Positions 16,210 through 20,215 of a DNA stretch of 64,000 bases are shown one piece after another. How positions within the stretch are numbered: position 1 is the stretch's first letter; the number at the start of each line of letters is the position of its first letter. The notes below the pieces were generated by a model that saw nothing but the letters and a program-made list of their open reading frames with translations, had not been told where the DNA came from and ran no database searches. Source of the DNA: Escherichia coli (GTDB taxonomy: Bacteria > Pseudomonadota > Gammaproteobacteria > Enterobacterales > Enterobacteriaceae); the NCBI RefSeq assembly GCF_030013595.1, contig NZ_CP122768.1. One strand, 5' to 3'. Both the position numbers and the translations under genes were made by a program.

Positions 16210-17058
16210 ATGGCGACATACCTTATTGGCGACGTTCATGGTTGTTACGATGAACTGATCGCATTGCTGCATAAAGTAGAATTTACCCCTGGGATAGATA
16301 CCCTCTGGCTGACGGGCGATCTGGTCGCGCGCGGCCCCGGTTCGCTGGATGTTTTGCGCTATGTGAAATCCTTAGGCGACAGCGTACGTCTGGTGCTGGG
16401 CAATCACGATCTGCATCTGCTGGCGGTATTTGCCGGGATAAGCCGCAATAAACCGAAAGATCGCCTGACACCGCTGCTGGAAGCGCCGGATGCCGACGAG
16501 CTGCTTAACTGGCTGCGTCGCCAGCCTCTGCTGCAAATCGACGAAGAGAAAAAGCTGGTGATGGCCCACGCAGGGATCACGCCACAGTGGGATCTACAGA
16601 CCGCCAAAGAGTGCGCGCGCGATGTAGAAGCGGTGCTGTCGAGTGACTCCTATCCCTTCTTCCTTGATGCCATGTACGGCGATATGCCAAATAACTGGTC
16701 ACCGGAATTGCGGGGGCTGGGAAGACTGCGGTTTATCACCAACGCCTTTACCCGTATGCGTTTTTGCTTCCCGAACGGGCAACTGGATATGTACAGCAAA
16801 GAATCGCCGGAAGAAGCCCCTGCCCCACTGAAACCGTGGTTTGCGATTCCTGGCCCTGTCGCTGAAGAATACAGCATCGCCTTTGGTCACTGGGCATCGC
16901 TGGAAGGCAAAGGTACGCCGGAAGGTATTTACGCGCTGGATACTGGCTGCTGCTGGGGTGGTACATTAACCTGCCTGCGCTGGGAAGATAAACAGTATTT
17001 TGTCCAGCCGTCGAACCGGCATAAGGATATGGACGAAGGAGAGGCGGTCGCGTCTTAA
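16210..17058 (+). CDS. apaH: Bis(5'-nucleosyl)-tetraphosphatase (symmetrical) ApaH, 282 aa
   Basis: [23 protein letters not shown]... with metallophosphatase motifs. Confidence 0.93.
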
Positions 17059-17369
17059 ATCCCGTCGAGCATAAAATCTAATGCCCCTTTAATCAACGTT
17101 CGGTGCGCGCTGGCATCGCAAAATTTCGTTCCCAGCGCGTTAACTGGAACAGTTGCAGTCTCATGCGTCATGAGCACATATTCTTTGCCGTCTACCAGTA
17201 AAAGGATTGTGTTAAGCCGTTCTGGAGGGCGAATACGGATAAATCGTTCAATAGGTGTTAATGGAATAACAATACGGCGATTAATCTCACCAATAATGTC
17301 GCTGGTAACATCGATAACAAAGGGAAACGCGGCGTTCCTGCCGCGACTGCGGTATACCGTAAATTGCAT
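17055..17369 (-). CDS. ccdB: CcdB-family gyrase-poisoning toxin, chromosomal type, 104 aa, intact ORF
   Basis: [40 protein letters not shown]... aligns over its full length with F-plasmid CcdB (MQFKVY...VIPL...MFWGI); sits between apaH and folA. Confidence 0.85.
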
Positions 17370-17371
17370 CG

Positions 17372-17604
17372 CTAGAAGCTCCGGTACTCATCAGAGAAAC
17401 ATCCGGTTTCATCAGCCAATTGATTTAACGCAGCGATAGCTTCTGCGTTCTCTTCACGCCAACGTGTTGCTGCATGTTTTTTAAGTTCAGCATTGAGCGC
17501 AACCGTAAGGGTGCGCTCATATTTAAGCCTGCATCACGAGCGCGATTGACTAACTCACGGTCGACGGTGACGGTCACACTTTGTGTGGTACGTTTTGCAG
17601 TCAT
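17372..17604 (-). pseudogene. ccdA: CcdA-family antitoxin gene carrying an apparent 1-bp frameshift
   Basis: ATG at 17604: frame 1 gives MTAKRTTQSVTVTVDRELVNRARDAGLNMSA then out-of-frame residues and a stop after 56 codons; a second frame gives TLTVALNAELKKHAATRWREENAEAIAALNQLADETGCFSDEYRSF ending 2 nt before the ccdB ATG; both halves resemble CcdA; region is 233 bp, not a multiple of 3. Confidence 0.7.
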
Positions 17605-17689
17605 GATATCGTGCTCCTGTACAATTTATACGTCTAGTAAACACGGATATCTGCACGTATCAGTGATGCCGGAATTCTAATATACAAAC

Positions 17690-20215
<2,526 letters not shown>

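Follow-up and report, generated by a model that had tools for sequence, protein, structure and literature searches.

The window analyzed here (the whole 64,000-nucleotide stretch of Escherichia coli DNA) carries a chromosomal ccdO157-type type II toxin-antitoxin islet in which the antitoxin gene ccdA is broken by a one-base deletion and the reading frame of the toxin gene ccdB is intact. The deletion is genuine and inherited, and it is lineage-wide. The ccd system, its location, its cross-talk with the F-plasmid ccd system, and its decay are already known from the literature, and the frameshifted protein has already been deposited; what is uncommon is solely the order in which the two genes have decayed, with a broken antitoxin beside an intact toxin frame. 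By the accepted view, the toxin must die first, antitoxin-first loss being lethal, and this lineage offers a ready-made test of that view. Judged from the sequence, the leading explanation, to which we assign a probability of roughly 55%, is that CcdB is inert, or too weak when expressed at native levels, leaving the cassette functionally dead on both sides. The state of the window most probably represents the last phase of neutral decay, and the locus is a textbook chromosomal toxin-antitoxin system drifting towards loss.

The islet between apaH and folA

Gene order in the window includes araD-polB-rapA and, further along, rsmA-apaG-apaH, minus-strand ccdB and ccdA, and then folA-kefC-kefF. 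The islet and its flanks consist of the following genes:

16210 to 17058, plus strand: apaH, the core gene on one flank of the islet
17055 to 17369, minus strand: ccdB, an intact 104-codon toxin gene from the ORF list, variant G10/E28/I44/T54, product ending in MLDGI
17372 to 17604, minus strand: ccdA pseudogene, 233 bp instead of the 234 bp of relatives (77 codons plus stop), from three-frame translation and alignment
17690 to 18169, minus strand: folA, the core gene on the other flank

This position, flanked by the core genes folA and apaH and with ccdA on the folA side, is that of the ccdO157 islet in the literature (PMC7232551, PMC3184786). E. coli K-12 is without the islet, and its folA-apaH spacer is 77 bp (PMC7232551). 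The ccdO157 system of O157:H7 (Wilbaux et al. 2007; Mine et al. 2009) has the same insertion site, gene order, and orientation as the window, and its CcdB has the same ...MLDGI C terminus. Its ccdA DNA is identical to that of the window except for the missing base and one synonymous change, but the O157:H7 gene is intact, whereas that of the window is frameshifted. When a 761-bp cassette query was compared with 5,426 complete E. coli genomes, full-length matches were present in 2,021, always between apaH and folA, and only the flanks were matched in the rest. The matching genes are annotated as “CcdB family protein” and “type II toxin-antitoxin system CcdA family antitoxin.” Synteny and family matches bore out the original prediction, made from the window alone, of a ccdAB-type cassette between apaH and folA.

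The apaH and ccdB genes are convergent, and both stop codons lie in the palindrome TTAA at 17055 to 17058, with the apaH TAA at 17056 to 17058 and the ccdB TAA on the minus strand at 17057 to 17055. The islet therefore abuts the core gene apaH with a 4-bp overlap.

The ccdB reading frame is uninterrupted from 17055 to 17369 on the minus strand, as had been expected of an intact 104-amino-acid CcdB homolog, and its product is identical to RefSeq WP_001160962.1, a “CcdB family protein.” Pfam family PF01845 (CcdB) is assigned to the identical 104-amino-acid product in contig L009, and the NCBIfam CcdB profile matched residues 1 to 104 of the window protein (E = 1.3e-15), a full-length match that places it in the family. 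The best PDB matches were V. fischeri CcdB (E = 3.5e-16) and plasmid F CcdB (E = 8e-10). The F-plasmid ccdAB operon belongs to the same Pfam families (PF01845 and PF07362) and has the same antitoxin-first, two-gene organization as the islet. However, the F operon is plasmid borne and the islet is chromosomal, F CcdB is only ~36% identical to the window CcdB, and an Asp in the window protein replaces Trp99 of F. Under the F-plasmid equivalog models (NCBIfam NF010262 and NF010264), the window CcdB scored 57.4 bits against a cutoff of 147, and the intact CcdA allele scored 38.6 bits against a cutoff of 100. Scores so far under these cutoffs place the system in the chromosomal clade, as a homolog rather than an ortholog of F. 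The toxin fold and gyrase target of the O157 homolog are established in the literature, and in comparison with F the chromosomal clade is described as having a weaker promoter and weaker toxicity, with no post-segregational killing (PMC2654758, PMC10886550).

The C terminus of the window CcdB reads ...MLDGI, as originally described, and the accompanying question of whether the Asp is normal for chromosomal variants can be answered in the affirmative. Eight chromosomal CcdB variants were sampled, the O157 type among them, and each has the LDGI ending, compared with FWGI in F CcdB; Asp also occupies the position of F Trp99 in CcdB of CFT073 and NRG857c (PMC7232551). The validated V. fischeri CcdB toxin has Thr at this position. 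Since Asp is usual in the clade and a proven toxin carries Thr, the residue is no sign of inactivation.

A one-base deletion in ccdA

The lesion divides ccdA into two pieces that lie in different frames:

17425 to 17604, minus strand: truncated 59-amino-acid ORF from the ORF list, CcdA residues 1 to 31 followed by 28 out-of-frame residues
17513: site of the 1-bp deletion in the alignment, a single G (plus strand) where all relatives have GG
17372 to 17512, minus strand: remnant in another frame, coding for the C-terminal domain with which CcdA binds CcdB (NCBIfam CcdA profile positions 31 to 71)

From the ATG at 17604 (minus strand), the frame reads MTAKRTTQSVTVTVDRELVNRARDAGLNMSA, departs from the CcdA sequence, and stops at 17425; the CcdA C terminus, ...HAATRWREENAEAIAALNQLADETGCFSDEYRSF followed by a stop codon, lies in another frame that ends at 17372. 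Three-frame translation agreed in this respect with the original prediction, which had described a CcdA-like N terminus, a shift of frame, and a CcdA-like C terminus in a different frame. Alignment with three intact cassettes showed a single gap in the whole of ccdA, where minus-strand GAGCGCCACCC has become GAGCG-CACCC; at 17513 the minus strand has changed from GCGCCACCC to GCGCACCC. The site is at the edge of an inverted repeat, GAGCGC-N-GCGCTC. A single missing base had been anticipated from the 233-bp interval, correctly in view of the 234 bp of relatives, but it had been placed at 17505 to 17512, one base off the true site.

Homology to CcdA is certain for both halves: apart from the gap and the one synonymous change noted for O157:H7, the DNA matches intact alleles base for base, and relatives are annotated with a 77-amino-acid CcdA protein. 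Pfam CcdA (PF07362) matched the intact ccdA allele with an E value of 1.5e-26, and the NCBIfam CcdA model matched the out-of-frame C-terminal half alone with an E value of 6e-5. The 59-amino-acid frameshift product matched no family. After the frameshift at codon 31, no single ORF spans both the DNA-binding domain (N-terminal) and the CcdB-binding domain (C-terminal), and the 59-amino-acid product lacks the latter, as had been proposed. A second, compensating indel in ccdA was ruled out by the alignment, which contains none. Internal restart of the C-terminal domain was also ruled out; its frame contains no ATG, GTG, or TTG until a late TTG, 15 codons from the end, which has no Shine-Dalgarno sequence. 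Loss of both CcdA activities, neutralization of the toxin and autoregulation of the operon, is predicted. The ccdA gene is best annotated as a pseudogene, and the strain should not be counted as a carrier of functional ccdAB.

The least probable of the alternatives considered, and a very improbable one, is that the base was lost through faulty sequencing or assembly and that ccdA is truly intact. In its favor, the deletion was absent from all 2,021 cassette-bearing complete E. coli genomes, every one of which matched a 60-base query centered on the site at 98.4% and none at 100%. The exact 59-amino-acid product is already recorded as STE03188.1 (UniRef A0A376H8S2), annotated as an antitoxin, under an accession style that we take to be associated with long-read-only NCTC assemblies, a point counted for an error, as is an error-type frameshift in the same gene in one other assembly. 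Against an error, 44 contigs and 73 index blocks (NCBI, ENA, and Logan) contained the identical product, and contig L009 of a separate assembly (GCA_002460785.1) matched the window with 100% identity across 6,180 bp. The deletion site is a two-base run, neither a long homopolymer nor a Dam or Dcm methylation motif. When the nearest complete genome, that of strain HCP5S3_I2 (99.9% identity), was compared across the 64-kb window, there were 34 substitutions, two IS insertions, indels of 15 bp and 6 bp, and two 1-bp indels. One of the two, in a fimbrial chaperone gene, is a difference of A7 versus A6 where the frameshift is that of the relative; the ccdA deletion is the only 1-bp indel derived in the window, which is otherwise free of such changes over 64 kb. 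The original prediction had allowed for an artifact, but the recurrence of the frameshift product on 44 contigs and the 6.2-kb identity of a separate assembly point the other way. Exact-pattern scans of JGI metagenomes returned no mutant and one wild-type match, too few for comparison.

The one assembly with an error-type frameshift (L019, GCA_949813125.1) also yields a 59-amino-acid ccdA product, which was rejected as support for the allele: it results from a different deletion (A6 to A5), and folA and apaH are broken as well. Single-base deletions at locus coordinates 680, 840, 1388, and 2563 of this assembly break folA, ccdA, and apaH. They lie in a T run, at two Dcm-type sites (CCTGG and CCAGG), and in the ccdA A6 run, homopolymer and Dcm-site changes that form a typical long-read error pattern mimicking toxin-antitoxin decay.

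The allele was found on two chromosomal backgrounds. Among 24 contigs that were read, 20 were of the window type with ccdB whole, and 4 were of a second type, represented by contig L010. Over 6.2 kb, 59 sites in the flanks distinguish L010 from the window. The L010 ccdB carries a 13-bp deletion in addition, making this minor sublineage one with both lesions. A further contig, L020, matches L010 throughout 3.2 kb, with the ccdA base as the single difference. The identical deletion on two backgrounds may have arisen twice or may have been moved by recombination; ccdA is invariant across the two backgrounds and fits either route equally. Since the site is beside the inverted repeat GAGCGC...GCGCTC, 17513 is possibly a deletion hotspot.

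Other alleles of the islet have decayed in the opposite order. The 13-bp ccdB deletion, found in the T54 variant at the equivalent of 17176 to 17188, is present in ~260 of the 2,021 complete genomes, and its 62-amino-acid product was found in 11,092 index blocks. Among the places listed, the deleted ccdB adjoins an intact 77-amino-acid ccdA in eight of nine, which makes a conserved orphan antitoxin the common state of the islet. Alleles of this type (e.g., those of strains 14EC020 and GMF054) share with the window the islet, the T54 CcdB background, and decay by small deletion, but they have a broken toxin and have kept the 77-amino-acid antitoxin, the reverse of the window. Three of the seven relatives inspected had a broken ccdB, and HCP5S3_I2 has the same ccdB allele and promoter region as the window with ccdA intact. 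In the window lineage, the antitoxin was lost and the toxin ORF is whole. The ccdO157 system has been described as degenerating, with ~20 to 30% of toxins defective (PMC2654758, PMC3879964, PMC7280312). The decay classes given where PMC3879964 summarizes a published survey are both genes active, toxin inactive, and both inactive. That summary, which calls toxin-first the “safer” order, contains no class in which the antitoxin is dead and the toxin alive, and the state of the window, antitoxin broken and toxin ORF intact, is thus missing from the classes summarized there.

Why an uncovered toxin frame is tolerated

If the variant is inert, the window would be an ordinary case in which missense inactivation precedes visible gene decay. 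If CcdB is active, a compensating mechanism would be required, for example dependence on a plasmid, a gyrase that resists the toxin, or recoding. The original proposal of a toxin that is tolerated or attenuated, or of a resistant gyrase, is reasonable; neutralization by CcdA of an F plasmid and rescue by a −1 frameshift are two further routes that it did not include. Expression signals around ccdB bear on this choice:

17379 to 17382, minus strand: GGAG Shine-Dalgarno sequence for ccdB, 9 nt before the ATG, read from the sequence
17605 to 17689, minus strand: folA-ccdA spacer of 85 bp, putative ccd promoter/operator region, identical to that of HCP5S3_I2

The premature ccdA stop is now 55 nt upstream of the ccdB ATG, and translational coupling between ccdA and ccdB is therefore lost. 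Occlusion of the ccdB ribosome-binding site after this loss of coupling was ruled out; the folded RNA of the ccdB start region was no more stable than shuffled sequences (z = 0.14). A consensus sigma-70 scan of the promoter region found no match, and a search for known RNA families on both strands returned only a chance match to a miRNA model, far below threshold. From 17033 to 18345, no second-site changes in the promoter, ribosome-binding site, or ccdB were present relative to HCP5S3_I2.

The toxin is 96% identical to O157 CcdB, from which it differs by four substitutions, S10G, V28E, S44I, and P54T. Gyrase (GyrA) poisoning by the O157 allele, with resistance conferred by GyrA R462C, is reported in the account that PMC10886550 gives of Wilbaux 2007. 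Of the four substituted residues, Thr54 is the sole one unique to the window variant among the eight chromosomal variants sampled; the position is Pro in F CcdB (Pro52), in V. fischeri CcdB, and in the other sampled chromosomal variants, and Pro54Thr is a candidate attenuating change. A literature search for mutational-scan data on F CcdB Pro52 found nothing relevant, and no published toxicity test of the G10/E28/I44/T54 variant was found.

The one-base deletion at 17513 shifts ccdA out of frame after codon 31, wrecking the second helix of the CcdA DNA-binding domain and removing the whole CcdB-binding domain; the promoter region, the ribosome-binding site of ccdB, and ccdB itself are unchanged. 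According to the leading explanation, the window CcdB, when expressed at native levels, would do too little damage to matter, and its frame would simply be yet to be disrupted in an islet at a late stage of decay. Because the lineage is viable and has been sampled repeatedly, we infer that uncovered CcdB is harmless in it. An inert toxin is the most likely reading in light of the attenuated clade (the O157 chromosomal CcdB has been called “somewhat attenuated” [PMC10886550]), the lack of a sigma-70-like promoter match, the known drift of the system, and Pro54Thr. Other observations weigh against it. Loss of DNA binding by CcdA should derepress the operon and raise CcdB, making tolerance harder, and the Shine-Dalgarno sequence of ccdB is still a good one and lies in unstructured RNA. 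The same CcdB variant is very common beside intact ccdA (>1,000 contigs), a distribution equally compatible with toxicity. The decay class missing from the survey as summarized in PMC3879964 also marks the window state as atypical, and it may need compensation from outside the window.

Such compensation could come from a plasmid, with an active toxin neutralized in trans by CcdA of an F-type plasmid that then becomes indispensable (“reverse addiction”), an explanation that we regard as unlikely. In its favor, E. coli commonly carries F-type plasmids with ccdAB. As PMC7354431 relates from Wilbaux 2007, F CcdA neutralizes the O157 chromosomal CcdB, and the chromosomal antitoxin does not neutralize F CcdB; reverse addiction is itself raised as a possibility in PMC7354431. 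Against rescue by a plasmid, dependence of a whole lineage on one would be fragile. Somewhat less probable than a plasmid is a toxin that is active but tolerated, either because it poisons gyrase weakly, with slow growth, SOS induction, or more persisters as the only outcome, or because the gyrase is CcdB resistant (e.g., GyrA R462C); that assessment applies to the two forms jointly. Work by Gupta from 2017 reportedly found that the chromosomal toxin inhibits growth, kills only at high expression, and promotes persistence, which counts for tolerance. The O157-type toxin is reported to be attenuated, and GyrA R462C to suffice for resistance to F CcdB (PMC10886550). A lasting cost should, however, bring a quick second mutation in ccdB, yet 20 of 24 contigs keep the gene whole; on this point, the lineage may simply be young.

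A further alternative, well below both of these in probability and close to the bottom of the range, is recoding within ccdA itself, at one site:

17476 to 17482, minus strand: A_AAA_AAC heptamer, putative −1 slip site, at offset 122 from the ATG (phase 2)

Antitoxin function would be partly kept by a −1 slip at this heptamer, with the CcdB-binding domain retained; CcdB would be an active gyrase poison and survival would depend on a hybrid CcdA that binds the toxin without repressing the operon, a proposal as improbable as the slip on which it is built. If true, the antitoxin frameshift mutation would be buffered by accidental recoding, and an autoregulated toxin-antitoxin pair would have been turned into a leaky, constitutively “primed” one. 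In support, the heptamer, a slippery sequence of the form used at programmed −1 frameshift sites, is in X_XXY_YYZ phase solely in the mutant frame, 30 nt after the deletion (the natural run reads TTA AAA AAC), and no stop codon lies between the deletion and the heptamer in that frame. A −1 slip is predicted to yield a 77-amino-acid CcdA that is wild type at residues 1 to 31 and 44 to 77 and regains the native C terminus. The presence of the identical deletion on two backgrounds also favors slippage.

IS1 uses the A6C motif as its natural −1 frameshift site, and the programmed site of IS1 insAB' has the same in-phase A_AAA_AAC heptamer as mutant ccdA. By comparison with insAB', however, the ccdA heptamer appears to be an accident of mutation, with neither a stimulator nor a sign of use. 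A stimulator was sought and ruled out by folding of 81 nt downstream, in which no hairpin or pseudoknot was found 5 to 9 nt from the heptamer (z = 0.19) and the nearest stable stem starts ~26 nt away; the sequence upstream contains no Shine-Dalgarno-like element. E. coli ribosomes slip on A_AAA_AAC at a basal rate of ~1% or less, which is probably too low for a labile antitoxin to match its toxin. In the second background, moreover, ccdB is already dead, and no selection for rescue is needed there.

Other differences in the window

Several further changes distinguish the window from HCP5S3_I2. A complete 1,329-bp IS10 at 1877 to 3205, with a 402-amino-acid transposase ORF at 1984 to 3192 (plus strand), is inserted in polB (DNA polymerase II) with a 9-bp target duplication, CGCCTGGCG. 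The insertion splits polB into ORFs of 531 and 283 amino acids; polB is intact in HCP5S3_I2. An IS186-type element at ~60944 to 62281, between mokC/hokC and dnaJ, has terminal repeats CATAAGCGCTAACTTAAGGGTT at both ends and is absent from HCP5S3_I2; K-12 has IS186A between the same genes.

An in-frame 15-bp tandem duplication at 8296 to 8310 (GGTAGCACCGTCCAC, present twice) lies in the type III secretion effector gene espY1, whose product is 258 amino acids in the window versus 253 in HCP5S3_I2. The fimbrial periplasmic chaperone ORF at 49962 to 50645 (plus strand) is intact in the window, with an A7 run at 50397 and a product of 227 amino acids; the HCP5S3_I2 gene has A6 and is annotated as frameshifted. 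Beside the chaperone, the usher ORF ends at an early stop in the window (603 amino acids), and that of HCP5S3_I2 is annotated with an internal stop.
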